Below are positions 16,484 through 30,028 of a stretch of 40,874 bases of DNA, in pieces. Source of the DNA: a virus (Duplodnaviria; Caudoviricetes). The position numbers were made by a program, and so were the translations under genes. The notes under the pieces are model-generated. The model worked only from the letters and a program-made list of their open reading frames with translations. It had not been told where the DNA came from and made no database searches. The stretch spans positions 1 through 40,874 of the IMG/VR virus record IMGVR_UViG_3300037408_000112; one strand, 5' to 3'. Every line of letters starts with the position of its first letter. Positions within the stretch are counted from its first letter, which is position 1.

Positions 16484-16612
16484 TCGCGGGCCCAATGGGG
16501 ACGGGTTGACACGATGGCCCCGAGCGTGTCCCATTGGCGCACGGGGTTGGGTTGACTCCTGAAGGGCGCAGTGACCAGGGGTGGGAGCTGCGCCCTTCGC
16601 ATTTCTGCAGTT

Positions 16613-16819
16613 CTACTCCTGCGCCGCGTCTTCGACAACCGGCTCGCGCAACTCTCGCGCGACCTCCTTCAGCCGCTTGATCAGCTGCGGGATGTCCTTC
16701 AGCGGGACGTTCACGTAGCGGTCATCGTCGAAGCCGCTGCCGACTTCGCCGATGTTGATGCCGCGACCATCCTCGTCGCCGTTCGCGTAGATCAGTCTCG
16801 TACCAGGCTTGACTAGCAT
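16613..16819 (-). CDS. Hypothetical protein (68 aa)
   Basis: ORF in the leftward operon, overlapping its neighbour. Confidence 0.6.
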   Translation of the reverse strand: MLVKPGTRLIYANGDEDGRGINIGEVGSGFDDDRYVNVPLKDIPQLIKRLKEVARELREPVVEDAAQE

Positions 16820-17004
16820 TTCCAGTTCTCCTCGATCAGTTTGCGGATGCGTTCCTCTGCTCCCCGGCCACGGCGCATCCTCACCGCCACCAGGACCTGA
16901 CGGCGCCGCGCACGGTCAGGCATCTCTCGAATCTTGCGCACGCAGCAGGCGTCGCACATGAGGTCGTAGCGCGGCCCTGGGGACGCGCAGAACTCGCAGC
17001 TCAC
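16813..17004 (-). CDS. Small Cys-rich (Zn-finger-like) protein
   Basis: CEFC...CDACC, GTGA overlap. Confidence 0.6.
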   Translation of the reverse strand: MSCEFCASPGPRYDLMCDACCVRKIREMPDRARRRQVLVAVRMRRGRGAEERIRKLIEENWKC

Positions 17005-17198
17005 TCAGCCAGCCCCCACCGCTCGCGCTCGGCCTCCCGGGCCAGCAGGTCCGCCTCGTGCTCGCGGAAGTAGCCCGGCAGGAGAATCTCGTTCATCAGC
17101 TGCGTCCGGCTCATCCCGTAGCTCGCGGCGTGCCGGTCCAGCATGTCGATCAGCGGCTGGGCCGCGAATATCACGATCTGTTTTCCTCGATCTTTCAT
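17001..17198 (-). CDS. Ribbon-helix-helix (CopG/Arc-like) regulator
   Basis: QIVIF strand, then LIDMLDRHAASYGMSRTQLMNEIL. First gene of the leftward operon. Confidence 0.65.
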   Translation of the reverse strand: MKDRGKQIVIFAAQPLIDMLDRHAASYGMSRTQLMNEILLPGYFREHEADLLAREAERERWGLAE

Positions 17199-17226
17199 GG
17201 GCTTGGCCTCTTGGATACTGGCGCGC

Positions 17227-17255
17227 AGCCTACTCCCATGCCCGGCGCATGTCCA
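17227..17255 (-). promoter_or_regulatory. Leftward sigma70-type promoter with a palindromic operator candidate
   Basis: TGGACA-N17-TAGGCT on the - strand, with the CATGC-N5-GCATG inverted repeat (17237-17251) overlapping the -35 and spacer. Confidence 0.6.
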
Positions 17256-17293
17256 GAATACTTAACTTCGAGAACGAGATTCGCAAATAGTTG

Positions 17294-17325
17294 TTGACCC
17301 GGAGTTTGGAACGTGATGGAATACT
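17294..17325 (+). promoter_or_regulatory. Rightward early promoter P1
   Basis: AT-rich upstream tract, TTGACC, then TGGAAT at 17-nt spacing. Aligns with P2 (TTGAC-N21-AATAC in both). Confidence 0.6.
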
Positions 17326-17341
17326 CCCCACAGCAGCAGTA

Positions 17342-17406
17342 CGTCGCCCCACGGAGAACGGGGACCTGGCCTCCGAATCGCGCGAGACCGACCAGGTAAA
17401 GGAGCC
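17342..17406 (+). ncRNA. Conserved two-hairpin leader RNA, copy 1
   Basis: CCCC-ACGGAGAAC-GGGG hairpin, then ACCUGG/CCAGGU stem with an inner CUC/GAG stem. Near-identical copy at 20335. Confidence 0.7.
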
Positions 17407-17408
17407 AC

Positions 17409-17462
17409 CCAAGTACAGCGGTATGCGACCGCTGCTGATGAGGCCAGCAAGCCGAAACTTGG
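17409..17462 (+). ncRNA. Type III hammerhead ribozyme, copy 1
   Basis: CCAAG-UA^-CAGCGGU-AUGCG-ACCGCUG-CUGAUGA-GGC-CAGCAA-GCC-GAAA-CUUGG. Full catalytic core, GUA triplet, predicted cut after 17415. Confidence 0.92.
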
Positions 17463-17471
17463 AGACCGACC

Positions 17472-17705
17472 ATGGCACTGAAGATCAGCAAGCACGCCGG
17501 CCAGCGGATGCGCGAGCGAAAGATCAGCCTGCGCCTGATCGCCCTGGCCATCGAGAAGGGCGAGAAGCAGGTCGAGAGCAGCGACGGCGAGGTGATTCGC
17601 TACCGGCTGCCGATGTCGATCGACGGCCTCGAAGTCGTCGCCCATCTGAACGTCATCATCGACTGCGACGTCGTCGTCACGGTCTACGTGAGGGGATGCC
17701 TGTGA
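17472..17705 (+). CDS. DUF4258-like (RelE/BrnT-type fold) protein
   Basis: ISKHAGQRMRERKIS...I..G...VVVTVY pattern. Confidence 0.7.
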   Translation: MALKISKHAGQRMRERKISLRLIALAIEKGEKQVESSDGEVIRYRLPMSIDGLEVVAHLNVIIDCDVVVTVYVRGCL

Positions 17706-17905
17706 ACGACCTGAACAAGCTCTACTGGATCAACAACGACAACTGGGTGCCGGCCTGTGGCGGCACCGAGCTGCCGTTCGAGACGCGCAACGGCCGGCGG
17801 GTCCAGTACATGTGGAACCGCAACAGCCGCGAGCACGCCTACTACGACCTCGACCGGGACATCTTCCTGGACGACGCCGAACTGAAAGAAGCCTTCGGAT
17901 TCTGA
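17696..17905 (+). CDS. Small early protein (WVPACGGTE type)
   Basis: WVPACGGTELPFETRNGRR...HAYYDL. The real start lies inside ORF 17291..17905. Confidence 0.7.
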   Translation: MPVNDLNKLYWINNDNWVPACGGTELPFETRNGRRVQYMWNRNSREHAYYDLDRDIFLDDAELKEAFGF

Positions 17906-17915
17906 GGAGACCGCC

Positions 17916-18101
17916 ATGAACCGCGAGCCGATCGAGCAGAACGTGAGCAACAAGCCGAAGTCAACGGAAGGCGTCGTTGGCGACGTCGTCCACGTCGTCG
18001 CTGACGACGGCAACTACTACGGCAGCTACCGCAAGACGCTGGTCGGCCTCGACCGGCAGGAGCTGTGGATGCCGTGCGACCAGTTCGGGAACATCTTCTA
18101 G
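17916..18101 (+). CDS. Small early protein
   Basis: Preceded by GGAGACCGCC-ATG. Confidence 0.7.
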   Translation: MNREPIEQNVSNKPKSTEGVVGDVVHVVADDGNYYGSYRKTLVGLDRQELWMPCDQFGNIF

Positions 18102-18110
18102 GAGACCGCC

Positions 18111-18350
18111 ATGATCGAGCGCCCCGCACCTGACTTTTCGGTTGACGACTACGGCCCGATGGCCGGCATCTCGCCGCTCAACGCCGACGCCCTCCGCTGG
18201 CTGAACCGCTTCCAGGCCAAGGCCTGGGGGCGGCGCACTCACGAGCTGGGCCCGCAGCTGATCTTCCACGTCAACGACAGCGAACAGTCTGACGTGTTCC
18301 ACGACATCCTGGCCGCCGCCAAGGCGCGCGGCTTCAACATCGCCTTCTGA
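18111..18350 (+). CDS. Small early protein
   Basis: Preceded by GGAGACCGCC-ATG. Confidence 0.75.
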   Translation: MIERPAPDFSVDDYGPMAGISPLNADALRWLNRFQAKAWGRRTHELGPQLIFHVNDSEQSDVFHDILAAAKARGFNIAF

Positions 18351-18360
18351 GGAGACCGCC

Positions 18361-18738
18361 ATGTCACTGCCTGACCTGAACGCCATGTCCCACGCCGAGC
18401 TGCAGCAGTACGCGATCGACGCGATCGAGCAGGGCATCAACGCCTGGCGCGTCATGCGCGCCGGCTTCGAGCCCGACGCCGTCGTCTTCATCGACGACTA
18501 CAACCGCGCGCTGCACCGCCGCAATTTCGGCAAGGCCGTCGAGCTGCTCACGCCCAACTCGGGCGAGCGCGTCTGCATCTACGGTCCCGACGCGCTGCGC
18601 GACGTCGTCCAGTTCGACGGCGACAAGGGCCGCTGCGTGCTGCACCCGAAGCGCCTCATCGACTTCATCGACGAGGAGATAGCCGGCGCCCAGGCGTCGC
18701 TGCGCTACCTGCGCAACCATGTGGAGGCCGCAGCATGA
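18361..18738 (+). CDS. Early protein
   Basis: Preceded by GGAGACCGCC-ATG. Confidence 0.75.
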   Translation: MSLPDLNAMSHAELQQYAIDAIEQGINAWRVMRAGFEPDAVVFIDDYNRALHRRNFGKAVELLTPNSGERVCIYGPDALRDVVQFDGDKGRCVLHPKRLIDFIDEEIAGAQASLRYLRNHVEAAA

Positions 18739-18947
18739 AGACCGCGAGTGCTGTGAAGGCCTGGCGGCGCCGCGAGGCGATGCGGCCCGAGCCGGTGACC
18801 AAGCGCGCCGTCGTCGGTGGCCCCTGGGAGGGGCTCACCGTCGTCGTGCGCACCAACATGGAGAGGTCCCTGGACCTCGTCATCAACGGCCGTCGCGGGC
18901 GCTTCGAGCGCCTGGGCGGCAGCCTGAAGTGGGTGGAGGCAGCATGA
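18735..18947 (+). CDS. Small early protein
   Basis: GGAGG SD and ATGA overlap. Confidence 0.7.
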   Translation: MKTASAVKAWRRREAMRPEPVTKRAVVGGPWEGLTVVVRTNMERSLDLVINGRRGRFERLGGSLKWVEAA

Positions 18948-19132
18948 CTGACCAAGAGTACGCAGAGATGCTGGCCGAAGAGCGCCGCATGTGGGGCGTT
19001 GAGAGCCGCTGGCAGGCGCAAGGCGAGGCGCTGCAGGTCCTCGCCGGTCTGGCCTACCTGGAAGACGATGAAGACGTTGGAGACGCCCTGCGCGAGCGCG
19101 CAGAGGACCTTCTTTCCCTTGTTCGAGACTGA
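18944..19132 (+). CDS. Small acidic early protein (62 aa)
   Basis: MTDQEYAEMLAEE..., GGAGG SD and ATGA overlap. Confidence 0.7.
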   Translation: MTDQEYAEMLAEERRMWGVESRWQAQGEALQVLAGLAYLEDDEDVGDALRERAEDLLSLVRD

Positions 19133-19144
19133 GGAGACCATGCC

Positions 19145-19444
19145 ATGGCAAAGCTGACCATCATCGCCATCGCGGCCCTCGCCGCCTCCGGCTGCGTCAC
19201 GCAGCATGAGGTGCGCGAGTCGGCCTACGCCGACTGCCTGAGTAAGGGCGGAAGCCGGGATACCTGCATCGCCGTGAGCTATCAGCACGGCGCCAGCTGG
19301 CAGGCGCAACAAGACGCCGCGATGGCGAGCTTCAACGCCTCGCTGCAGGCGGCGTCGTTCGCCATGCAGCCCAACTACTACCAGCCAGCCGTGCGCCTGC
19401 AGACCAGCTGCATGCGCGTCGGCACCATGCTCACTTGCAACTGA
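19145..19444 (+). CDS. Lipoprotein
   Basis: Signal peptide MAKLTIIAIAALAASG-C with lipobox, C-terminal TSCMRVGTMLTCN. Confidence 0.75.
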   Translation: MAKLTIIAIAALAASGCVTQHEVRESAYADCLSKGGSRDTCIAVSYQHGASWQAQQDAAMASFNASLQAASFAMQPNYYQPAVRLQTSCMRVGTMLTCN

Positions 19445-19455
19445 GGAGAACTGAC

Positions 19456-20214
19456 ATGCCTGGACTGATGCTTCACTGTGGTGCCAACTCGATCGACCGC
19501 AACGCGCTCGCCGCGCTGCCGCTGCCGCCCGCGATGGGGCCGCGTCACGTCGTTCGCCCCTACATCGACGACCTGGAGATCGTCGAGCACGCCCTCGCCG
19601 ACTACGGCCTGGCCGTCAACGACGAGGCCTTCGGCATCACCAAGGACGGTGGCCGCTTCTTCGGCGTGCTGGAGTGCGCGCCGATCGAGGGCGAGTACAT
19701 CGGCAAGGACTACGGCCTGATGGTCGGCCTGCGCGGGTCCTACGACCAGTCGATCGCGCGTGGCCTGGCGATCGGGTCGAGGGTGTTCGTGTGCGATAAC
19801 TTGGCCTTCAGCGGCGAGGTGAACATCCTCACGCGGCAGACGACCAACATCGCCAGCCGCATCCCGCAGCTGCTGCGCAGCGCCGTGGCCCAGCTGCCGC
19901 AGCTCGCCGAGCACCAGCAGGCGCGCTTCGAGGCGTACCGGAACACGGCGCTCACGCCGCGCCAGGGCGACGCCATGCTGGTCGAGCTGATGCGGAAAGA
20001 GGTGCTGACCTCGAACAGCATCAAGCGCGCTGTGGCCGAGTGGGACGAGCCGTCGCACCCGGAGCACGCCGAGCAGGGCCGCTCGATCTGGCGCATGCAC
20101 AACGCCGTGACTGAGGCGCTGAAACCGGCGGACGCCGCCCGCTTCGCTATCCCGGCGCTGTGGGAGCGCACGACGAAGATGACCAAGTTCTTCGACGAGG
20201 TCGTCGGGCTCTGA
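19456..20214 (+). CDS. DUF932 family protein
   Basis: LMLHCG, GLRGSYDQS, GSRVFVCDNLAF and SIWRMHNAVTE motifs. Start re-called to ATG 19456 after GAGGAG. Confidence 0.8.
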   Translation: MPGLMLHCGANSIDRNALAALPLPPAMGPRHVVRPYIDDLEIVEHALADYGLAVNDEAFGITKDGGRFFGVLECAPIEGEYIGKDYGLMVGLRGSYDQSIARGLAIGSRVFVCDNLAFSGEVNILTRQTTNIASRIPQLLRSAVAQLPQLAEHQQARFEAYRNTALTPRQGDAMLVELMRKEVLTSNSIKRAVAEWDEPSHPEHAEQGRSIWRMHNAVTEALKPADAARFAIPALWERTTKMTKFFDEVVGL

Positions 20215-20223
20215 CGGGCCGAC

Positions 20224-20243
20224 CGGGGGCTTCGGCCCCCGGC
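20224..20243 (+). terminator. GC hairpin ending early unit 1
   Basis: CCGGGGGC-TTCG-GCCCCCGG with no clear U-tract. The same core recurs at ~26897. Confidence 0.5.
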
Positions 20244-20283
20244 CAGCTCGGGAAGATAATTCGTGAATTGTGTTTGAAAGGTG

Positions 20284-20315
20284 TTGACGGCCGGAACGGA
20301 TTCAGGCCTAATACA
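20284..20315 (+). promoter_or_regulatory. Rightward early promoter P2
   Basis: AT-rich upstream tract, TTGACG, then CCTAAT at 17-nt spacing. Aligned with P1. Confidence 0.6.
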
Positions 20316-20334
20316 CCCAACAGCCAAGCAGCAC

Positions 20335-20396
20335 CGTCGCCCCACGGAGAACGGGGACCCGGCCTCCTGAGATGAGACCGACCGGGTAACGGAACC
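20335..20396 (+). ncRNA. Conserved two-hairpin leader RNA, copy 2
   Basis: Same first hairpin as copy 1. The ACCCGG/CCGGGU stem covaries with copy 1 (U-A to C-G), and the distal loop differs. Confidence 0.7.
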
Positions 20397-20400
20397 ACCC

Positions 20401-20455
20401 CCAGTCAGGGCGTATGCGACGCCCTCTGACGATGGCCCAGCAAGGCCGAAACTGG
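20401..20455 (+). ncRNA. Type III hammerhead ribozyme, copy 2
   Basis: CCAG-UC^-AGGGCGU-AUGCG-ACGCCCU-CUGACGA-U-GGCC-CAGCAA-GGCC-GAAA-CUGG. GUC triplet, predicted cut after 20406. Confidence 0.92.
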
Positions 20456-20463
20456 AGACCGCG

Positions 20464-20751
20464 ATGTTCAGCCCCTACTACGGTTGCGACGAGTACGAAG
20501 GCGACTACCTGGCCCGCGAGATGCAGGAGGAGTTCTTCGCCCAGGCCGACTACCTGAGCGAGGCCTACGGCGCCACGGCCCGCGACGCCGCCGACTTCGC
20601 CGACGAGGACTACGACGCGATGGTCGAGGAGGCCTGCGAGCTGGCCGCCTCCCTTGGCGTCCTCGACGGCCACGTCCAGGCCAAGCGGATCCACGACTCG
20701 GCGGTGCGCATCGCCGCCGGCAACGCTGCCTTCGATGACATCCCCTTCTGA
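20464..20751 (+). CDS. Highly acidic early protein with an SSB-type C-terminal DDIPF
   Basis: 22 D/E versus 5 K/R in 95 aa, ending AFDDIPF. Confidence 0.8.
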   Translation: MFSPYYGCDEYEGDYLAREMQEEFFAQADYLSEAYGATARDAADFADEDYDAMVEEACELAASLGVLDGHVQAKRIHDSAVRIAAGNAAFDDIPF

Positions 20752-20761
20752 GGAGACCGAC

Positions 20762-20956
20762 ATGAACATCAACTACTCGACGGCGGGCGGCAACTGGAAG
20801 AGCTACGCGATCCGCTCGGTGCTGGCCCAGGGGCCGGACTTCGCGGTCCTGGTCGACGAGCTGGATCGCCGCCTGCGCCTCGAGGGGCGCGAGCTGTACA
20901 GCATCAGCCGCAACGGCCACTTCCGCCGCATCAGCTACAACGCCTCGATCAACTAG
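20762..20956 (+). CDS. Small early protein (64 aa)
   Basis: GGAGACCGAC-ATG, MNINYSTAGG... Confidence 0.7.
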   Translation: MNINYSTAGGNWKSYAIRSVLAQGPDFAVLVDELDRRLRLEGRELYSISRNGHFRRISYNASIN

Positions 20957-20965
20957 GAGACCGCC

Positions 20966-21133
20966 ATGCTCGCCGCCCTCGCCATCCTCTTCGTCATCTT
21001 CCTGTTCGCCGGGCACCGCGACGCGAGCTGCGAGCGCGTCGCCAACGCCATCGAGCACCAGAACTACATCGCCTGGCGCCAGGCCAGGGGCGACAAGCCC
21101 TGGCACCCCGAAGACAACCCGAACGGCTACTGA
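20966..21133 (+). CDS. Small membrane or exported protein (55 aa)
   Basis: GGAGACCGCC-ATG, MLAALAILFVIFLFAG...NPNGY. Not in the ORF track. Confidence 0.7.
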   Translation: MLAALAILFVIFLFAGHRDASCERVANAIEHQNYIAWRQARGDKPWHPEDNPNGY

Positions 21134-21145
21134 CCGGAGACCGCC

Positions 21146-21508
21146 ATGAACAGCATCGCCTCCCTGCAGAACCTGCCGCGCAGCCTGAACGGGCTGCGCC
21201 GGCGCATCGAGCAGATCATCGCCGCCGAGAACGAGCTGATGGCGCTGCACCAGAAAGCGTGCGAGCGCGTCGCCCAGCTCACGCTGGTCGAATGCGAGCT
21301 GCAGAACAACTTCCTCTTCCCGGCCGTCGTCCACTGGGGCGACGACTTCGACGGCTGGTGGCGCGAGCTGCCGGACGAGCGCCGGGTCGAGGTGTTCGAG
21401 TACCTGAACACGCTGGCCGGCTGCGCGCTGTCCCGCTCCGAGCTGGAGCACGCCGCCTGGTCCGCCTACATGGACGCCTTTCATATCCAGGTGGAGAGCG
21501 AGCGATGA
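21146..21508 (+). CDS. Early protein
   Basis: Preceded by GGAGACCGCC-ATG. Confidence 0.75.
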   Translation: MNSIASLQNLPRSLNGLRRRIEQIIAAENELMALHQKACERVAQLTLVECELQNNFLFPAVVHWGDDFDGWWRELPDERRVEVFEYLNTLAGCALSRSELEHAAWSAYMDAFHIQVESER

Positions 21509-21822
21509 GCATCGAGGTCGTCAGCATGGCGTGGATCAAGTCGCGGGCCGCTGGCCCGTTCTTCTCGAAGGAGACCATGCGGTTCTTCCGGTCGCGCCTC
21601 CCCGACAGGGGGCTGCGCAACGGCGACCGCGTCTACTTCTGGACCAGCGAGCAGTGCGGCTGGGCCGGCGACACCGAGCGCGCGTTCACGCTGCGCGAGC
21701 TGGACCTGGTCACCGGCCGCGTGCAGACGGTCGGCGACTTCCAGGCGTATCCGACGGCCGCGAAGGCGCAGGCGGCCGTGCGCGACGCCGCCCGCAACTG
21801 CCTGCCCAAGGAGGCCGCATGA
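21505..21822 (+). CDS. Conserved phage early protein (FFSKETMRFFRSR type)
   Basis: FFS..TMRFF.SR...YF.TSE...FQAY motif, ATGA overlap. Confidence 0.75.
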   Translation: MSIEVVSMAWIKSRAAGPFFSKETMRFFRSRLPDRGLRNGDRVYFWTSEQCGWAGDTERAFTLRELDLVTGRVQTVGDFQAYPTAAKAQAAVRDAARNCLPKEAA

Positions 21823-22022
21823 ACATCGTCCCGGTGTACCCCTCGTTCCCGGTGTTTCACGTCCACTGCTCGCAGTGCGGCAGGCCGGAGTCGAACGAGA
21901 GGGAGGGCCGGCTGTACGCCGACCTCGATGGCCCGGCGTTCCGGTCCTACTACTGCGCCGCGTGCGCACGCAAGGCGCAGCCCGACGCCTGGGCGGCGCG
22001 CATCGTCAACGGAGAGGAGTGA
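21819..22022 (+). CDS. Small Zn-finger protein
   Basis: CSQC...YADL...YYCAAC, GGAGG SD. Confidence 0.7.
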   Translation: MNIVPVYPSFPVFHVHCSQCGRPESNEREGRLYADLDGPAFRSYYCAACARKAQPDAWAARIVNGEE

Positions 22023-22023
22023 C

Positions 22024-22143
22024 ATGAAGCACCGCAACCCGGTCGCCCGCCACGCGCGGGCATTCAACAAGTCGGCCGTGATGGTCGACCGCAAGGCCGC
22101 TGCGAAGCGCGGCTACTCGAAGCACCGGAGGCCGCACGCATGA
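22024..22143 (+). CDS. 39-aa basic peptide (NPVA...FNK...DRK...KH type)
   Basis: MKHRNPVARHARAFNKSAVMVDRKAAAKRGYSKHRRPHA, GAGGAG SD. Confidence 0.7.
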   Translation: MKHRNPVARHARAFNKSAVMVDRKAAAKRGYSKHRRPHA

Positions 22144-22439
22144 ACCTGACCGGCTTCATCAAGCTGAAGCTGCTGTCGATCGACGCCTGGCGCGAGCCGG
22201 AGGGCGGCTGGACGTGGAACGACCTGCGCATCGTCGAGCGGGACTGGTACTGGTCCCCCGAGTCGCTGAAGCCGCGCCAGCTGCTGCGGCGCCTGCGCAA
22301 GTCGGGCTACCTGACCGACGCCAGCAAGGGCCGCGTTCGCGTCGAGGTCGTCGCCGACGACTGGCACGACGGCACGCTGATCGAGATCCAGGACAAGAAC
22401 ACCCGCGAGCCGCTGCTCGCCCTTTCCAACCTGCACTGA
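22140..22439 (+). CDS. Early protein
   Basis: IDAWREPEGGWTWND motif, ATGA overlap. Confidence 0.75.
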   Translation: MNLTGFIKLKLLSIDAWREPEGGWTWNDLRIVERDWYWSPESLKPRQLLRRLRKSGYLTDASKGRVRVEVVADDWHDGTLIEIQDKNTREPLLALSNLH

Positions 22440-22447
22440 GGAGCACC

Positions 22448-23008
22448 ATGAAGACCAGCGAGAACATCGACAAGATCGCCCCCGCCTTCGTCGCGGCGCT
22501 CGGCAAGATGAGCGACGTCGTCAAGGACACCGCCAACGACTTCGGCGGCTACAAGTACGCCACCCTCGACGCCGTGACCGCGATGGCCCGGCCGATCCTG
22601 GCGGACCACGGCCTGGCCGTCGTCCAGGAGGTGGCCGAAGGCGAGCACGCGATCAAGATCCTGACGCGCGTGCTGCACGTCAGCGGCCAGTGGTTCGAGT
22701 CCGAGCCGTTCCCGCTCGCGATCGAGGACCGCAAGGGCATGACGCACGCCCAGGCGATCGGCTCGACCATCACCTACGGCCGCCGCTACGCGCTGCAGGC
22801 GATGCTCGGCATCACGGCGGAGGCTGACGACGACGCCAGCGACGCCGGCAAGGACACCGGCAAGACGCCGGTCGGCATCGCCCGTCGGGCGCAGCTCGAC
22901 GCCATGAAGGCCGGCAAGCGCCCGAGCTACCCGCGCCGGGGCGACCCGGAGCACGGCATCAGCGAGCGCGAGGAAGACGCTGCCGTCACCCCTGACTTCG
23001 ACCTCTAG
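22448..23008 (+). CDS. erf: ERF family single-strand annealing protein
   Basis: YKYATLD...AQAIGSTITYGRRYAL...GI.AE.DDDA motif. Start re-called to MKTSEN. Confidence 0.9.
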   Translation: MKTSENIDKIAPAFVAALGKMSDVVKDTANDFGGYKYATLDAVTAMARPILADHGLAVVQEVAEGEHAIKILTRVLHVSGQWFESEPFPLAIEDRKGMTHAQAIGSTITYGRRYALQAMLGITAEADDDASDAGKDTGKTPVGIARRAQLDAMKAGKRPSYPRRGDPEHGISEREEDAAVTPDFDL

Positions 23009-23017
23009 GAGAGCACC

Positions 23018-23200
23018 ATGAACACCCTCTACATGCACAACGTCACCCGCATCACCCTGAAGCCCATCCACGCCCTGGGCCAGGTCCCGAGCATGGCGCG
23101 CGACATCGTCATCGAGGACGAAGACGGTGGCCGCTTCGAGATCACGCTGTTCGGCACCGAGTCTGGCCTGGGCATCATCGAGGAGCACGCCGATGCGTAA
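23018..23200 (+). CDS. Small early protein
   Basis: GGAGAG SD, MHNVTRI...EITLFG. Confidence 0.7.
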   Translation: MNTLYMHNVTRITLKPIHALGQVPSMARDIVIEDEDGGRFEITLFGTESGLGIIEEHADA

Positions 23201-23456
23201 CGCCATCATCCTGGCGCTGGCCCTCGCGGCCGGCGCGGCCCACGCGCAGTACCAGCCGTGGGACACCGTCGGCATCGCGACCGGCGCCGACCTGAACATC
23301 CCGGTGCCGGCCGACGGCCGCACGCGCGACTTCCGCAGCTGGGACAACGAGCGCGGCCTCCGCTGGGGGCGCGTCGAGGTGGAGCCGTCGGGCGACTGGC
23401 GGACCTGGGACAACGAACGCGGCCTCAGGTGGGGCCGCATCGAGGTGGAGCAATGA
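23193..23456 (+). CDS. Exported protein with a 22-aa tandem repeat
   Basis: Signal peptide MRNAIILALALAAGAAHA, then WDNERGLRWGR(V/I)EVE twice. Confidence 0.75.
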   Translation: MRNAIILALALAAGAAHAQYQPWDTVGIATGADLNIPVPADGRTRDFRSWDNERGLRWGRVEVEPSGDWRTWDNERGLRWGRIEVEQ

Positions 23457-23659
23457 GCAGGACCTGTGAGTGCGGTTGCGGCACCGAGATCGGTGACGAT
23501 TCGCGCTTCGCGCCCGGACACGACAGCACGCTGTTCTGGCGCGAGGTGAGGGAGCTGCAGGAGATGCGGGGCGACACGCGCCCCATCACCCTGTTCGCTC
23601 TGGACATCATTCGGGGCGCGCGGTTCTTCGCGGTCCTGGCAGGAGGGAACGAGCGATGA
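23453..23659 (+). CDS. Small protein with a CxCGCG...FxPGHD metal-binding motif
   Basis: CECGCG...RFAPGHD, ATGA overlap. Confidence 0.7.
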   Translation: MSRTCECGCGTEIGDDSRFAPGHDSTLFWREVRELQEMRGDTRPITLFALDIIRGARFFAVLAGGNER

Positions 23660-24540
23660 CGACCTACTACAGCGTCGAGCAGCGCAGCGAGGACTGGCAC
23701 GCGCTGCGCCGCTACCGCATCACCGGGTCGGAGATCCCGGTCATCATGCGCAGCCCTGAGCGGGCGCTGCGCGAGCACGTCCGCAAGGTCCTGGGGCTGC
23801 CCGGCTTCCAGGGCAACGACGCCACCCGCTACGGTGCGGAGGCCGAGCCGGTGGCCCGCGACTGGTACGAGCTGACCCGGAACGTGACCGTGCGCCAGGT
23901 GGGCTTCGCCGCCAGCGACGACGACCCGCGCCTGGGCTGCTCGCCGGACGGGATCACCAACTTCCAGGGCGGCGAGGCCGTCGTCGAGTTCAAGTGCCCG
24001 TACACCGGCGACCTGCCGGAGGAGCCGAAGCCGGACCACGTCAAGCAGGTCCAATGGAACACCGGCATCTGCAAGCTGGACACCGGCCTGCTGGTCTACT
24101 GGACGCCGGAGGGCAGTGCGGTCTTCCCGGTGCCGGCCGACCCGGCCTGGTTCGAGAAGGCCGTGGCCGCCGCGCAGGACCTGCTGGCCGAAGCCGAGCC
24201 GATCCTGAAGGACCAGGCGACCGCCCTGGCCTGGCTGACTGCCCAGGAAGCCCAGATCGGGCTCAGGAGCGATCGGGAGTGGGCAGAGGCAGCCCAGGCC
24301 TACCTGGACGCGAAAGCGGCTCAGGCAGCCGCTGAGGCCGCCACAGAGGCCGCCAAGGCCGCCCTGCTCGCGCTGGCCGGCGACAAGCCGGCCGCCGGCG
24401 CCGGCGTCAAGCTGGCCTGGGTCGAGCGGCAGGGCCAGGTGGACTGGCCGAAGATCGCCAGGAAGCACGGCATCTCGGTCGACGAGATCGAGGCCGCCAG
24501 GAAGAAGTCGACGACCTACGCCAGGATCACGGAGGACTGA
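23656..24540 (+). CDS. YqaJ / lambda-exonuclease family recombination nuclease
   Basis: EQRSEDWHALR, ITGSE, GCSPDG, EFKCP and QVQ motifs. Confidence 0.9.
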   Translation: MTTYYSVEQRSEDWHALRRYRITGSEIPVIMRSPERALREHVRKVLGLPGFQGNDATRYGAEAEPVARDWYELTRNVTVRQVGFAASDDDPRLGCSPDGITNFQGGEAVVEFKCPYTGDLPEEPKPDHVKQVQWNTGICKLDTGLLVYWTPEGSAVFPVPADPAWFEKAVAAAQDLLAEAEPILKDQATALAWLTAQEAQIGLRSDREWAEAAQAYLDAKAAQAAAEAATEAAKAALLALAGDKPAAGAGVKLAWVERQGQVDWPKIARKHGISVDEIEAARKKSTTYARITED

Positions 24541-24815
24541 TGCACGACAGCAGGCGCACGGCGACGCAGATCATCGCCGAGCAGCTGCGGCGCCCTGGCT
24601 ACAAGGCCAGGGTGGCCGCCAAGTGCATCGACTGCACCTACGACGAGGCGGCCCCGGGAAGCTGGCGTGCGCAGGTCGACGCCTGCACGGTGACCGCCTG
24701 CCCCTTGTGGCCGGTGCGCCCGCGCAGGAGTGGCCTTCCCGGTAGCGTGACGGAGGACAGCGATGACGAACGAGGCGACGGAGAGACTGGAGAGGTTCCT
24801 GGTCAGGCTGCGTGA
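24540..24815 (+). CDS. Small Cys-rich phage protein
   Basis: KCIDCTYD...W..QV..C....CPLWPVRP motif. Confidence 0.7.
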   Translation: MHDSRRTATQIIAEQLRRPGYKARVAAKCIDCTYDEAAPGSWRAQVDACTVTACPLWPVRPRRSGLPGSVTEDSDDERGDGETGEVPGQAA

Positions 24816-25116
24816 GGCCGGCGAGCGGTACGCCCACGCGGCGGCGACCTATGAGCAATTCGACCACCAGCGGAAGGTGGTCCTGGCCGAGCAGATGAAG
24901 GAGGCGGAGGAGAAGGGGGCCACCTCAGCAGCGGCCCAGGAGCGGGAGGCGCGGGCATCGCTCACGTACTCCAACTTCCTGGACCAGCTGTTCGAGGCCA
25001 GGCTGGAACTGGAGCTGGCGCGCTCCGACCTGGACGCGCTGAAGCTGTCTGCGTCACTGGCGCAGACGATCAAAGCCAACGAACGCGCGGAGGTCCGCGC
25101 GTATGGCGCAACGTGA
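24763..25116 (+). CDS. Coiled-coil, UvsY-like recombination mediator candidate
   Basis: SAAAQEREARAS..Y...ANER, helical, located between the exonuclease and SSB genes. Confidence 0.5.
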   Translation: MTNEATERLERFLVRLREAGERYAHAAATYEQFDHQRKVVLAEQMKEAEEKGATSAAAQEREARASLTYSNFLDQLFEARLELELARSDLDALKLSASLAQTIKANERAEVRAYGAT

Positions 25117-25131
25117 GAGGAGCATCGAGCA

Positions 25132-25383
25132 ATGCCGTACAGCAACGTGGGCAAGGGCTTTCTGATGAAGGTCAGCGAGAAGAAGAGCGAGCGCGGCCCG
25201 GACTTCACCGGGAAGCTCGAACTGGACGACGGCCAGGAGATTCAGGTCTCGGCGTGGGTCGAGGAGAGCAAGAGCGGCAAGAAGTACCTGTCGCTGTCGC
25301 TGCAGGTCCACGAGGAGGAGCGGGCCAAGCCGGCGCCGCGTGGCCGCACGCGCGACGACCTCGACGACGACATCCCGTTCTGA
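25132..25383 (+). CDS. ssb: Small single-stranded DNA-binding protein (DUF736-like)
   Basis: PDFTG...VSAW...GKKYLSLS core with an acidic DDDIPF tail. Confidence 0.8.
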   Translation: MPYSNVGKGFLMKVSEKKSERGPDFTGKLELDDGQEIQVSAWVEESKSGKKYLSLSLQVHEEERAKPAPRGRTRDDLDDDIPF

Positions 25384-25384
25384 T

Positions 25385-25563
25385 GGTTGACCCGTGCCGC
25401 GAGGGTCCCCGCGAGGGGAGTGCGCGGCTCAGGCGTAAGCCGGGAGTGGCCTGACGTTCACAACCAACTCCGGCAGCCGGTACGGGGCTTTCCCTCGCGC
25501 AGACAACCTCAGCGCGGCGGTCTCCACCCCGGGACCCGGCCGACTGGCCCACGTCACGGGCCA
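25385..25563 (+). ncRNA. Candidate structured RNA or DNA element
   Basis: Multiple long complementarities and two GNRA hairpins in an intergenic gap of ~200 nt. Confidence 0.4.
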
Positions 25564-25586
25564 CTTCACCAACCAGGAGAGGACCA

Positions 25587-25940
25587 ATGGCAGAGACCGA
25601 GCAGTGCATCCGCATCGAGATCATTCTCGACCCGGGCGACGGCGACTACGTGGTGACGCTGGAGACCGGCTTCGACAACGAAACGAAGCCGCGCTGGCGC
25701 GCGATGTTCAAGGGGCCGATCGAGGCGTGCATCAGCGCGTCCATCAACGCCTGGACCGACATGCAGGTCGCTGGCGCCATCCTGGCGCTGCCGATCAGGA
25801 CCAACCTGCGCGGACACGAGGACATCTGCGAGGGCGCGGACGCGCAGCACTTCTTCCACTCCGTTGCGCTCGGCATCCGCGACATGGACCCGGAGGGCAT
25901 CGTCGTCGCTGGCAGCGAGATGTTCGGGAGGCCGCAATGA
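25587..25940 (+). CDS. Hypothetical protein
   Basis: AGGAGAGG SD, 117 aa. Confidence 0.7.
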   Translation: MAETEQCIRIEIILDPGDGDYVVTLETGFDNETKPRWRAMFKGPIEACISASINAWTDMQVAGAILALPIRTNLRGHEDICEGADAQHFFHSVALGIRDMDPEGIVVAGSEMFGRPQ

Positions 25941-26122
25941 CCATCTTCTGCGACGTCATCCCGAAGACCAACGCCGAGCGCCTCGAAGAGTGGCTCGACA
26001 AGGATGGGCCGCTGCGTCACTTCGAGGAGCGATGGCCGGGCGTGCCGTTCGATGTTGCGCACGCGATCGAGCACTGCGAGTACGTGGCGATCCACAACTC
26101 ACTGAGGAGACAGGCCGAATGA
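25937..26122 (+). CDS. Hypothetical protein (61 aa)
   Basis: GGAGG SD and ATGA overlap, MTIFCDV... Confidence 0.65.
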   Translation: MTIFCDVIPKTNAERLEEWLDKDGPLRHFEERWPGVPFDVAHAIEHCEYVAIHNSLRRQAE

Positions 26123-26280
26123 CTGACACCCTGAGATTCCTGCAAGAAGAGGTCGAGCGGTTGCGCGAAGCTATCGCCGAGCGAGACGAAGAGCTGCGCT
26201 CTCTGCGGCTCATAATCGCCAACAAGGACGCGCGATTTCAGCGCATCCGCGAGGCGCTGGGAGATGGCAATGTGGTCTGA
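26119..26280 (+). CDS. Small coiled-coil protein (53 aa)
   Basis: MTDTLRFLQEEVERLRE..., ATGA overlap. Confidence 0.6.
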   Translation: MTDTLRFLQEEVERLREAIAERDEELRSLRLIIANKDARFQRIREALGDGNVV

Positions 26281-26413
26281 TGACGACAACGACCTGAAGT
26301 ACGCGATGACCGGCGAGCGTAGGACAGATGAGCCGCCGTTCTGGCTCGCGTTGTTGCTGCTGACGATGCTCGGGCTGCTGCTGGGCTATGTTGTAGCCTG
26401 CATGATCAACTAA
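26264..26413 (+). CDS. Small single-TM protein (49 aa)
   Basis: Manual translation ...EPPFWLALLLLTMLGLLLGYVVACMIN. Confidence 0.55.
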   Translation: MAMWSDDDNDLKYAMTGERRTDEPPFWLALLLLTMLGLLLGYVVACMIN

Positions 26414-26417
26414 ACTC

Positions 26418-26490
26418 ACGGCACGGTGGAAGGTCGCCCGACCGGGCCACCGTCGCCGCTCCTCCCCCGGTCGGGCAACTTGAAGGAGTT
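26418..26490 (+). promoter_or_regulatory. H-type pseudoknot in the leader of the Gly-rich secreted gene
   Basis: ACGGUGG/CCACCGU stem crossed by an 11-bp GCCCGACCGGG/CCCGGUCGGGC stem. Confidence 0.55.
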
Positions 26491-26496
26491 ATCCTC

Positions 26497-26889
26497 ATGC
26501 GTAAGACGCTTCTCGCAGTTGCACTCCTGGCCGCTGGTGCGGTCCAGGCCGCCGGCTTCACCGCCGGCACCGGCTCGCTGGCCGGTTCCACGTCCGCGAT
26601 CAATTCGTTCGCGGGTTCCGCCATCGCTGGCGCCACCCTCACTGGCGGCTCCACCGCTGGGCAGGCGGCGACCGCTGGCACCGCTGGCGCCTATGGCGTC
26701 GGTGGCATCGGCATCGTCGGCCAGGGCATCGTGGCCGGCGGCGTGCTGGGCACCTACAGCGGCGCCATCGGTGGCTCCGCAGTGCAGTCCCAGATGGGCA
26801 GCGCGTCGCTCGGCCTGGCGGGCTCCGCCACGGCTGGCGGCTCGCAGGCCACTGGCGGTTCGGGCAGCTTCGCTGGCCTGGACTTCTAA
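26497..26889 (+). CDS. Secreted Gly/Ala/Ser-rich low-complexity protein
   Basis: Signal peptide MRKTLLAVALLAAGAVQA. The mature chain is almost uncharged. Confidence 0.8.
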   Translation: MRKTLLAVALLAAGAVQAAGFTAGTGSLAGSTSAINSFAGSAIAGATLTGGSTAGQAATAGTAGAYGVGGIGIVGQGIVAGGVLGTYSGAIGGSAVQSQMGSASLGLAGSATAGGSQATGGSGSFAGLDF

Positions 26890-26896
26890 GCCCTTC

Positions 26897-26916
26897 GCGG
26901 GGGCTTCGGCCCCCGC
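26897..26916 (+). terminator. Intercistronic hairpin (partial terminator or stabiliser)
   Basis: GCGGGGGC-TTCG-GCCCCCGC with no U-tract. Confidence 0.5.
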
Positions 26917-26934
26917 ATCACTCAGGAGAGAGAC

Positions 26935-27489
26935 ATGTTCCGCAAATCCATTCTGCTGGTCGCGCTGTTGAGCACTGGCGCCGTTGCCGGTAACAGCATC
27001 GACGTCAGCTCCGGGTCGAGCGCCAATTCTGGCTCGGTGTCCAGTTCGCAGTCGGGCAGCTACAGCAACACGGGCGCGGCGACCGCTGGCAACGCCCAGA
27101 ACATCAGCTTCACCAACCCGGGCACGGTCAACTACAGCGGCTCGCATTCCGTGCGCAACGTACCCGACGTCACCACCATCATTCCCGGCATGACCGCGCC
27201 CTGCTACGTTTCGGCCGGCGTGTCCGGCTCGGGCGTCGGCTTCGGCTTCGGTGTCGCCTCCGGCATCGAGGACAAGGACTGCACCGCGCGGGAGGATGCC
27301 CGCACCCTGCTGGCGATGGGGCTGAAGGATGAGGCGGTTGCCAGGCTGTGTCAGCGTGACACCATGGCGAAGGCGCTCGGCGTGAAGTGCGGCGTTCCGA
27401 CGCAGCTTCCGGCCAGCTCCCCGCAGGTGTCCTACAACCCGTCGACCCGCACGACCACCGTGCGCGAGATGAACGGCTTCAACCACTGA
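26935..27489 (+). CDS. Secreted Ser-rich protein with a Cys-containing C-terminal domain
   Basis: Signal peptide, SSGSSANSGS segment, then PC..S.G.SG.G.GFG...D.DC...AR.L..MG....A.A.LCQ. Confidence 0.8.
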   Translation: MFRKSILLVALLSTGAVAGNSIDVSSGSSANSGSVSSSQSGSYSNTGAATAGNAQNISFTNPGTVNYSGSHSVRNVPDVTTIIPGMTAPCYVSAGVSGSGVGFGFGVASGIEDKDCTAREDARTLLAMGLKDEAVARLCQRDTMAKALGVKCGVPTQLPASSPQVSYNPSTRTTTVREMNGFNH

Positions 27490-27500
27490 AGGAGCAACCG

Positions 27501-27944
27501 ATGAGTGCAATCTTTCGCGTTCTTTCCGGCACCGCCCGCATGCGCGTCGCCGGCCTGGAGGCCGACGTCACCGCGCCCTGGGAAGAGGCCGGCATCGAGT
27601 ACGCGCCCGCCGTCGCCAGGCCGAAGGACCTCAGCGGCATCGAGCGGTTCAAGGCTGCGGTGGCAGAGGGGATGCTGACCGACCTGCAGGCGCCCGCGAT
27701 GGGGGCCGCTGACGTCATCCCCGGGCAAGGGCGGCGCGGGCAGCAGGTCCAAGCCCGCGTCCAGGTCGAGGCCGTCGACGACCCGGTCTATCTGCGCATC
27801 TGGCAGGACCGCACGTCGGCGCATCCTGACGAGACGTTCGGCCGGGGGGCTGAGGCGTCAGAGACGCTGCTGCAGCCTGGCGAGGTCTGGGAGGGCAACG
27901 TCGCCCACCAGAACGCCTGGACGGTGATTGCCGTCACCGGCTAA
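27501..27944 (+). CDS. Hypothetical protein (147 aa)
   Basis: AAGGAG SD, MSAIFRV... Confidence 0.7.
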   Translation: MSAIFRVLSGTARMRVAGLEADVTAPWEEAGIEYAPAVARPKDLSGIERFKAAVAEGMLTDLQAPAMGAADVIPGQGRRGQQVQARVQVEAVDDPVYLRIWQDRTSAHPDETFGRGAEASETLLQPGEVWEGNVAHQNAWTVIAVTG

Positions 27945-27967
27945 CGCTCTCCCCACGCGAAGTCTTC

Positions 27968-27994
27968 GGGCGCCTTCGGGCGCCCTTCTTTTTT
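27968..27994 (+). terminator. Rho-independent terminator
   Basis: GGGCGCC-TTCG-GGCGCCC followed by TTCTTTTTT. Confidence 0.8.
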
Positions 27995-28004
27995 GGAGGT
28001 GACG

Positions 28005-28334
28005 ATGAAGACGAACCCCTACTGGGGCGACGGCGGCTGGCTGCTCAGGACCTACACCTGGAAGGGCGAGCCCTATATCGCCGTGTACCGTGGCCGGCGC
28101 CGGCTCGGCGTCATCCGTGGCGAGCCCGAGATCGCTCACGAGCTGGCCAAGCTGGCTGGCGGGAAGGTCATCGAGCTGGGCGAGGTGCGCGAGACGCCGA
28201 CCATCCAGGTCAAGCAGTGGACCTGCTACGAGCCGTTCGAGGCTATCGGCAACGGCTGGGGCAGCTACGACGGCCCGAGCACCAAGGCCGAGATCGAGGA
28301 GGCCGACGCCAACCGTCCCGGCTGGGACGATTAG
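28005..28334 (+). CDS. Hypothetical protein, last rightward gene
   Basis: GGAGGT SD. Its stop overlaps the stop of the convergent late gene. Confidence 0.7.
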   Translation: MKTNPYWGDGGWLLRTYTWKGEPYIAVYRGRRRLGVIRGEPEIAHELAKLAGGKVIELGEVRETPTIQVKQWTCYEPFEAIGNGWGSYDGPSTKAEIEEADANRPGWDD

Positions 28335-30028
28335 CGCCCGGTGAGATCGGGGTACAGGGACGTGCCGCCGATCGCTCCACCCAACCCCTGCGGGATGCTG
28401 CCAGCGCCCTGCAGCGCCCTCACCAGCAGCCGCTGCGCCATGGGCGACCACAGCGCCTGCCCACCGAGATAGAGCCCACCACCCAGCATCGCCGTCGTCA
28501 GCGGATCGACCAGCGCCCCGCCGCCGGCCAGCCCGGCCGTCATGGCCCGCTCGGTCGTCCCGGACGTCGGCACGCGATCACCAAGGACCCGCTGGCCCAG
28601 GTTCGCGATGTCCTGCATCGGCGCTTCGCCGGCCGCCGCCTGGCGGTGCCGCACCGAGCGGTCGCTGTACTTCGCCGCGAGCTGCAGCTGGCCTGGCGTG
28701 AACACGCCCTCCTTCGCCGCCGTGCGGTTCGCTGCGGCCTCAAGGCGGACCAGGTTCGCGTATGCCCGGTCGGCCACGTTCAGCGCCTGCGCATAGGCCG
28801 GGTTCTGATCGGCCGCCGCGCTTCGCAGGATGTTGCGCAGCTCGCGGAACGCATCCTGCGCCTGGCCCTCGCTCTTGGCGATCGCCGTGGACAATTCGCT
28901 GTCCAGTTCCTTGAAGTTAACCGGGTCGAAGCCCTGCGCCCTTCCCAGGCGCGGGCCGAACTTGTCGCGCATGAACTGACTGAAGGCGCGACGCGCATCG
29001 CCAGTGGCGTAGCGCATGTTCTGGGTCAGCTGCATGATCTCCTGCCCGGCCGTGATCGGCTGCGTGCCGGGCCCGGCGAGCGTTGCCGTGCCCTGCGGAC
29101 GGTTGAGCAGGATGCCGCCAGGGGCCAGCTGCTCCGCCTCGCGGTAGGCGCGGTTCGCCATGTTCTGCATCTGCTGAATGCCGCGCTGGCCGATCTCGGT
29201 CACGTCCCCAGGCAGCCCCTCCATCGCCCGCCGCTCGGCCGCGAGGATCCACTGGTCCTGCGCCCGCTGCCTGGCCGCGCCGATCGCGTCCCCGAGCAGG
29301 GGGATGCTGCCGAGCTTCTCCTCAGTCCTCGACGCCATCCCACCCATCGCCTGGCCGATCGTCGGCTCGACGCCTTCGGCCTGCAGCGCCCGCACGTCAG
29401 CCCGCCCGGCATTCCTGCCAAGCGCACCCAACCCGCCGATCACCGCCTCACCGGCCGCGCCAGCCCCGGCGCCGATGCCGGTCTGAATCGCCTTCTGGGT
29501 CCAGAAGTCGTCGCCCCCTGTCACCGGCGTGGTCAGCGCGCCCGTCGCCGCGCCGATGCCGGCGCCCTGCGCCAGCCGGCCGCCGAGCGACGCCGCCTGC
29601 GGCAGCAGCCGCGAGATGCCGGACGCCCAGCCACCGGCCAGCGTGCCGCCGACGTTGCCGCCGATCCGGCCCCAGTCAACACCCTCTTCGCCGGCCGCCT
29701 GCCTGGCCTGCTGGTAGGCCTGCTCCTGCTCCGCGATCTGCTGGCTGACGCCGCCCTCGCCGAGCCGCTCCAGCGGCAGCCCCTGGTCTGCCAGCCAGTT
29801 GTTCAGGGCGTTGACGCGCTCGGTGACGCCAGCCGGCAGCGCCTCTGACAGCAGCTGCGCCGGGGCATTGACGAGGTCGCGTAGCCCCTGCATGACGCCT
29901 GACGGCGCCTCAGGGCGCCCCAGGCCGCCGAGCTTGCGCTGCAGCTGCGCGAGCGCCTCTTCCTCCGTGTCGACGCCGCCGACCTCGAACGTGCCCTGGC
30001 CAGGAATCCTGATCTCGAAGGTCGCCAT
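28331..30028 (-). CDS. Internal virion / DNA ejection protein
   Basis: Gly/Ala-rich glycine-zipper segments, GVEPTIGQA and VPTSGT.ER motifs, last gene of the late operon. Confidence 0.75.
   Translation of the reverse strand: MATFEIRIPGQGTFEVGGVDTEEEALAQLQRKLGGLGRPEAPSGVMQGLRDLVNAPAQLLSEALPAGVTERVNALNNWLADQGLPLERLGEGGVSQQIAEQEQAYQQARQAAGEEGVDWGRIGGNVGGTLAGGWASGISRLLPQAASLGGRLAQGAGIGAATGALTTPVTGGDDFWTQKAIQTGIGAGAGAAGEAVIGGLGALGRNAGRADVRALQAEGVEPTIGQAMGGMASRTEEKLGSIPLLGDAIGAARQRAQDQWILAAERRAMEGLPGDVTEIGQRGIQQMQNMANRAYREAEQLAPGGILLNRPQGTATLAGPGTQPITAGQEIMQLTQNMRYATGDARRAFSQFMRDKFGPRLGRAQGFDPVNFKELDSELSTAIAKSEGQAQDAFRELRNILRSAAADQNPAYAQALNVADRAYANLVRLEAAANRTAAKEGVFTPGQLQLAAKYSDRSVRHRQAAAGEAPMQDIANLGQRVLGDRVPTSGTTERAMTAGLAGGGALVDPLTTAMLGGGLYLGGQALWSPMAQRLLVRALQGAGSIPQGLGGAIGGTSLYPDLTGR

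Follow-up and report, generated by a model that had tools for sequence, protein, structure and literature searches.

Two cassettes of promoter-like site, predicted structured leader RNA and type III hammerhead ribozyme in a podovirus genome

IMG/VR record IMGVR_UViG_3300037408_000112 was analysed over its full 40,874 nucleotides (the window); it carries a 127-nt terminal repeat and is a complete 40.7-kb podovirus genome. The minus strand codes for an SU10-type capsid, portal and adaptor proteins, terminase, primase, helicase and RusA, and the plus strand carries a block, from 17472 to about 27960, of small genes together with ERF and YqaJ recombination proteins, which its gene content and layout suggest is likely to be the early region. 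Two rightward operons of this block are each headed by a cassette that comprises a promoter-like site, a 56-nt folded leader RNA, a type III hammerhead ribozyme and a ribosome-binding site with its Shine-Dalgarno (SD) sequence. The features are as follows.

17294..17324, plus strand: promoter-like site P1, with a TTGAC hexamer and a -10-like region; predicted start near 17330
17342..17363, plus strand: leader domain 1, copy 1, a predicted H-type pseudoknot with helices S1 (17342-44/17351-53) and S2 (17347-50/17360-63), both with compensatory changes
17364..17397, plus strand: leader domain 2, copy 1, a bulged stem with an invariant GGCCUC / GAGACCGAC core
17409..17462, plus strand: type III hammerhead 1, predicted to cut after A17415 (GUA)
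17461-64 (SD) and 17472-17705 (first gene of unit 1), plus strand: 77 aa, Pfam DUF4258
20223..20242, plus strand: G+C-rich hairpin without a U tract, 3' of the last gene of unit 1
20284..20314, plus strand: promoter-like site P2, its sequence recognised by eye; predicted start near 20320
20334..20356, plus strand: leader domain 1, copy 2, a predicted H-type pseudoknot
20357..20387, plus strand: leader domain 2, copy 2, a bulged stem
20401..20455, plus strand: type III hammerhead 2, in which A9 is followed by an additional U; cut predicted after C20406 (GUC)
20454-57 (SD) and 20464-20751 (first gene of unit 2), plus strand: 95 aa, no family

L464, a phage with an 88% identical terminase, shows the P1 layout again at the orthologous site, where a promoter-like site, the same leader and a hammerhead with different loops precede a first gene that is similar by eye to the DUF4258 gene. 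P1 and P2 are visual matches to the consensus and their promoter activity is predicted only. A terminator scan made no call for the hairpin at 20223..20242.

The hammerhead ribozymes

A sequence-only reading of this DNA had proposed two type III hammerheads at these positions. This was borne out by a descriptor search of the window, which found exactly these two elements and none in 200 dinucleotide shuffles, with both strands searched. The complete catalytic core that had been claimed for them is present in both copies (CUGANGA, GAAA and an NUH cleavage triplet); copy 2 in addition carries a U between A9 and stem II, an insertion that 22 of 73 distinct relatives also have. As in RF00008, there are three stems, of which I and II are closed by loops and III is open, with an A15.1-U16.1 pair and a potential contact between loops I and II, and each hammerhead when folded alone gives the three-stem form. 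The copies differ from that family in the additional U of copy 2 and in their scores. The Rfam comparison that had been suggested as a check did match both to Hammerhead_3, with 40.7 bits (E 4e-06) for copy 1 and 32.8 bits (E 7e-04) for copy 2; both scores are below the gathering score of 48.5 bits, and a default Rfam scan therefore misses both hammerheads. Because the ribozyme of phage NV1 likewise falls short of this score, at 29.4 bits, we conclude that the sub-threshold values reflect the reach of the model.

Stem I had been drawn with 7 bp and a 5-nt loop. Its relatives favour 6 bp and a 7-nt loop beginning with U, which is the commonest form (38/73 distinct relatives), and judging from these relatives stem I here probably has the same form, with the seventh pair open. 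Stems I and III have other sequences in copy 2 than in copy 1, yet pair fully in both. The loops had been described as invariant, and they are indeed identical in copies 1 and 2, but they differ at the orthologous site of L464. The contact proposed between loops I and II is supported: complementary triplets are present in both window copies, and at least three Watson-Crick pairs can be formed in 24 of 49 distinct loop pairs compared with 11.9 when partners were shuffled, counts that are uncorrected for the relatedness of the sequences. None of 5000 shuffles reached the observed value, and a compensatory change can be seen between NV1 (UGC/GCA) and UFV-P2 (UAC/GUA). We conclude that both elements are real type III hammerheads of a known and common phage kind. 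They very probably cleave themselves at the predicted bonds.

In viral contigs, the number of stored stretches that match a pattern with just the core and a GGCC stem II fixed was estimated at 700, and among at least 129 loci obtained with this pattern, 121 hold a type I or type III fold. When stricter rules were applied and duplicates dropped, an SD and start codon were found within 60 nt of 39/55 type III and 67/89 type I hammerheads, against 4/73 on the opposite strand and 201/1460 at random places. An upstream gene end (26/51 versus 122/530) and a hairpin just 5' of stem III (26/51 versus 129/530) are also enriched at hammerheads of this family, and most of the relatives therefore lie between genes; an upstream TTGAC is not enriched (10/51 versus 88/530). 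The cultured Pseudomonas phages NV1, UFV-P2, Rembedalsseter and HHBS51_1 each carry a type III hammerhead just 5' of a gene. These elements (L490:975-1033 for NV1, and in records L491, L492 and L493) are unannotated, and in NV1 the annotated first coding sequence starts at 980, within the ribozyme, an SD and ATG following it. Arrays of 3-5 type I hammerheads, each directly before a small gene, were seen in L313, L333, L384 and L316/L317. Clusters of hammerheads flanking prophage genes have already been reported (Perreault et al., 2011; PMC3088659, available text), and in the halovirus HF1/HF2 the same text places a ribozyme 13 nt upstream of the gene that heads an early transcript; the 5' end of this transcript was mapped close to the hammerhead cut. 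The hammerhead of PaP3 was tested and was active, according to that text. The window copies resemble the hammerheads of that survey in occurring several per genome and in front of genes, and differ in that neither a conserved upstream pseudoknot leader nor overlap with the SD is described in the part of the paper available.

Stem III and the Shine-Dalgarno sequence

A potential explanation for the position of the ribozymes, and the one offered by the sequence-only reading, is that stem III masks the SD of the next gene until the cut frees it, as in engineered SD-sequestering switches. The overlap itself is as that reading described. In both copies the GG of the GGAG lies in stem III, and this is kept in all three orthologous cassettes, as a gate predicts. 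Switches of this design function in E. coli (PMC5052635, available text), and a search that fixed a CAGCA-type loop II, the subfamily nearest to the window copies, found the whole SD inside stem III in 8 of 15 cases; over ten whole-SD cases the median predicted gain was 1.6 kcal/mol. Only two of the four SD bases are paired in the window copies, however, and the predicted gains there are inconsistent. With one folding set-up cleavage made GGAG cheaper to open by 0.0-0.2 kcal/mol for copy 1 and 1.1-1.5 kcal/mol for copy 2, with another the values were 1.4, -1.9 and 1.3 kcal/mol for copy 1, copy 2 and L464, respectively, and the gain changed sign with the folding window, so that no robust effect was seen. 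Moreover, in the search that was unbiased for an SD, the SD lay wholly outside the last stem at 36/39 type III and 64/67 type I hammerheads, as it also does in the four cultured Pseudomonas phages, and processing therefore fits better than gating. As no ligand or switch element is evident, a gate could impose only a brief delay. Gating is thus weak in these copies, and we consider cleavage-gated translation an unlikely account of the cassette.

A true SD-masking subfamily of hammerheads does appear to exist from these comparisons, of which the window copies are at best partial members. The whole SD lies in the 3' strand of stem III in L125, L132, L135, L141, L166, L167, L181, L190 and L414 (two sites), and several of these hammerheads follow a gene end and a G+C-rich hairpin. 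They are, from their layout, natural candidates for cleavage-dependent translation, and would provide a natural match to the engineered switches.

It had also been suggested that the 5'-OH end left by cleavage would protect the message from decay. A stabilising effect of such an end is plausible; entry that is independent of the 5' end is a major RNase E route (PMC4191395).

The leader RNA

Release of the upstream leader as a separate RNA, which the sequence-only reading had proposed, follows if cleavage occurs. What that reading overlooked is that the leader is itself, on comparative evidence, a conserved structured RNA family. Copies 1 and 2 have about 70 nt of sequence in common 5' of the ribozyme, and in both the leader is the 56-nt RNA between the promoter-like site and the hammerhead. 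Two pattern scans (17 and 57 loci) gave two more leaders, picked by eye; they come from unrelated phages, L483 and L504, and in both the leader follows a promoter-like site at the head of an operon of small genes. These records are 96% and 90% complete, respectively, and hold one leader copy each; no hammerhead fold was found among the three loose core matches listed for them. When a model was built from the other three leader copies, L483 and L504 ranked first and third of 47 loci.

It can be seen from the five leaders that 96.8% of the cells of the nested fold are paired and that 4 of 13 pairs have changed on both sides. In addition, a further helix (S1), spotted only after the five examples had been chosen, joins in all five the triplet on the 5' side of the loop to three bases 6-8 nt upstream of it. 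S1 shows compensatory changes in 5/5 leaders, with three different pairs at one position (A-U, A-U, G-C, C-G and C-G), and the 4-bp S2 does so in 4/5. The loop motif is absent from 43 other distinct pattern hits. Since the GGAG of the loop is variable, an alternative GGAG/CUCC pseudoknot within the leader was discarded. Several observations weigh against the family and its fold: 5 of the 43 other hits can form some pseudoknot of at least six pairs, S2 is reduced to 2 bp in L483, the pair counts lean upward as there are only five examples and two were picked by eye, and the hold-out model ranked second, of the 47 loci, a coding-region match (L549) that we rejected as a leader.

A strain variant of the phage differs at 35 positions in all; among the 31 listed, 28 fall in the 234-nt first gene, two in the promoter spacer and one in the 142-nt cassette. 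The single change in the cassette affects an unpaired linker base of the pseudoknot model.

The leader had no match in Rfam 15 (E<=10 in the window; E<=1 in L538, L504 and L531), and scans of 95 sources, 99 hammerhead loci and five further records with the leader model, R1, gave nothing new. As the model found no leader at the 99 other hammerhead loci, leader and ribozyme are separable modules. The exact leader pattern had no matches in viral contigs, and a loop-based pattern found the family in none of 118 loci, with one loose chance match. In metagenome contigs the leader pattern gave 44 loci, none followed by a hammerhead, which we read as chance, and the weak BLAST matches of the leader in cultured phages and plasmids lay in coding DNA where they were inspected (L489) or annotated. 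A search of the open-access literature found neither a report of this leader nor one of natural phage hammerheads with an SD in stem III. We conclude that the new element here is an uncatalogued RNA family, predicted from covariation to form an H-type pseudoknot followed by a bulged stem.

One role that such an RNA might have is as a trans-acting decoy for a host protein, such as CsrA/RsmA, a defence protein or a toxin, with the hammerhead serving to mature it. The leader is compact, has two domains and invariant bulged bases and is duplicated behind two promoter-like sites, it would receive a precise 3' end if cut, and each window copy has two ANGGA motifs. Csr/Rsm decoy RNAs are, however, defined by several conserved GGA motifs in hairpin loops, and the leader lacks this character, since the loop GGA is present in just two of the five examples and is lost in L464, L483 and L504. 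Two of the five leaders come from near-complete genomes in which no hammerhead was found, so that release is not required, and the constant promoter-adjacent position suggests action in cis. We regard a decoy as improbable. Downstream of the leader in L483 and L504, one small gene after another has a short hairpin ahead of its SD; several of these hairpins have an ACGGA loop, and they resemble CsrA/RsmA sites.

The leader could alternatively pair in trans with ribosome-binding sites of early genes, as GGCCUCC is complementary to GGAG(A/G)CC, which occurs 19 times in 17000-28400, many of them before starts. However, GGCCUC is paired within the conserved stem in 5/5 examples, and a match of just 6-7 nt is likely by chance in G+C-rich DNA; we think this very improbable. 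Ten GGAGACC motifs lie in 17461-21570 on the plus strand, most used as ribosome-binding sites, and the invariant GAGACCGAC of the leader resembles them.

Function of the cassette and its surroundings

The leader was compared with the put RNA of phage HK022, which lies in two copies behind both early promoters and works without a tether to the transcript (PMC9378689, available text). Antitermination by put needs no protein factor and acts through the beta' zinc-binding domain of polymerase. In the HK022 record, using the published numbering, putL consists of a pseudoknot and then a stem with one bulge on the 3' side and an irregular middle. The topology predicted for the leader by covariation is the same, an H-type pseudoknot followed directly by a bulged stem, and the two RNAs are of a similar size class and occur in two copies, those of the window behind sites that by eye look like promoters. 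They differ in that S1, S2 and loop 3 of the leader are shorter, the phages belong to other groups and there is no sequence match: putL gave no significant match to either window leader. The published description of put, in the part available, mentions no downstream ribozyme, and no hammerhead search was made on HK022. Because sequence match and critical residues are both lacking, we conclude that the leader is not a member of the put family. By analogy it may nevertheless act as put does, as an anti-pausing or antitermination RNA; this is the likeliest single role for it and still a tentative one.

Under the mechanism that we propose, the hammerhead would cut constitutively during transcription. 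The cut lies 18, 19 and 19 nt beyond the leader in copy 1, copy 2 and L464, respectively, from which we infer that it falls near where RNA leaves the polymerase. Cleavage 18-19 nt past the leader module would detach an 86-87-nt leader RNA from the mRNA and leave the message with a uniform, hairpin-capped 5'-OH end, and the released leader would act on the elongating polymerase. Taken as a whole, a cassette that cleaves itself, frees a leader acting on polymerase and leaves a uniform 5'-OH mRNA is our best explanation, and we hold it to be evenly balanced between right and wrong. The part of it that the analogy with RiboJ in engineered constructs favours, that the cut serves to separate leader from message and to insulate the latter, is somewhat the better supported and is probable. 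As in RiboJ and the SD-sequestering switches (PMC8942793 and PMC5052635, available text), a hammerhead between promoter and ribosome-binding site would remove a leader and give uniform mRNA; the window cassette differs in being natural, in that the removed piece is a conserved RNA and in that its SD is partly paired. The most specific version, a new protein-free antiterminator with a put-like fold and unrelated sequence, whose tether the hammerhead cuts so that the RNA rides on polymerase and the message is freed, we consider doubtful.

A number of results weigh against this explanation, besides the conserved GG overlap discussed above. A promoter scan tool called no promoter-like sites, at its thresholds, in 16500-28500; by eye a promoter-like site precedes the leader in 5/5 examples, while the tool called none of those in the window. 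No terminator that would have to be read through is evident: unit 2 ends with one strong site, two weak sites both lie within genes, and there is no C-over-G bias. The leader has no counterpart to the critical U28, A9-G35 and A64 of put, and model R1 scored at best 3.2 bits over an HK022 stretch containing putL. The single RNA run covers just two 151-nt pieces downstream of the ribozymes. Lastly, nested models of the full transcript gave the hammerhead fold a probability of 0.000-0.086, or of 0.11-0.47 for copy 1 and 0.01-0.07 for copy 2 when the leader was held folded; such models disregard pseudoknots and tertiary contacts.

These low fold probabilities in context, together with the scores under the Rfam cut-off, would also suit ribozymes that are slow or inactive remnants in a cassette that arose by recent neutral duplication. 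Against this, full pairing is retained although the sequences of stems I and III have changed from one copy to the other, the gene next to the cassette is less conserved than the cassette itself, and the hammerhead that L464 carries at this site has other loops; we therefore regard remnants as highly unlikely.

The role of self-cleaving ribozymes in bacteria and phages is described as largely open in the available text of two reviews, which suggest processing into transcripts that differ in stability or translation (PMC6765202; PMC6155905). At the present locus, in both copies, the hammerhead lies at a set distance from an upstream RNA that is defined and covaries, and the occurrences of this leader elsewhere without a ribozyme provide natural controls. 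The relatives show how general the layout is, and the cultured phages NV1, UFV-P2 and HHBS51_1 carry the ribozyme half. Should the leader prove put-like, antitermination by RNA alone would not be confined to lambdoid phages, and if the cassette does combine a release device with an antiterminator it would be a two-RNA machine that gives phage hammerheads a concrete job.

The sequencing runs that contain this phage are wetland, soil and sediment metagenomes, and its capsid protein is 30-40% identical to counterparts from Pseudomonas, Rhizobium and uncultured podoviruses. Divergent from P1 on the minus strand is a 65-aa gene (17001-17198), with no match in Pfam, PHROG or PDB and a counterpart in L464, which by eye alone has the look of a small ribbon-helix-helix regulator. 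PDB sequence searches also gave no match for the first gene of unit 1 (17472-17705); its family, DUF4258, is presumably linked to RelE/BrnT-like nucleases. Finally, a Proteo-phage-1 RNA is present at 25391-25478 on the plus strand (49.3 bits, which exceeds the Rfam cut-off), within a larger structured gap (25380-25610) of the plus-strand gene block.

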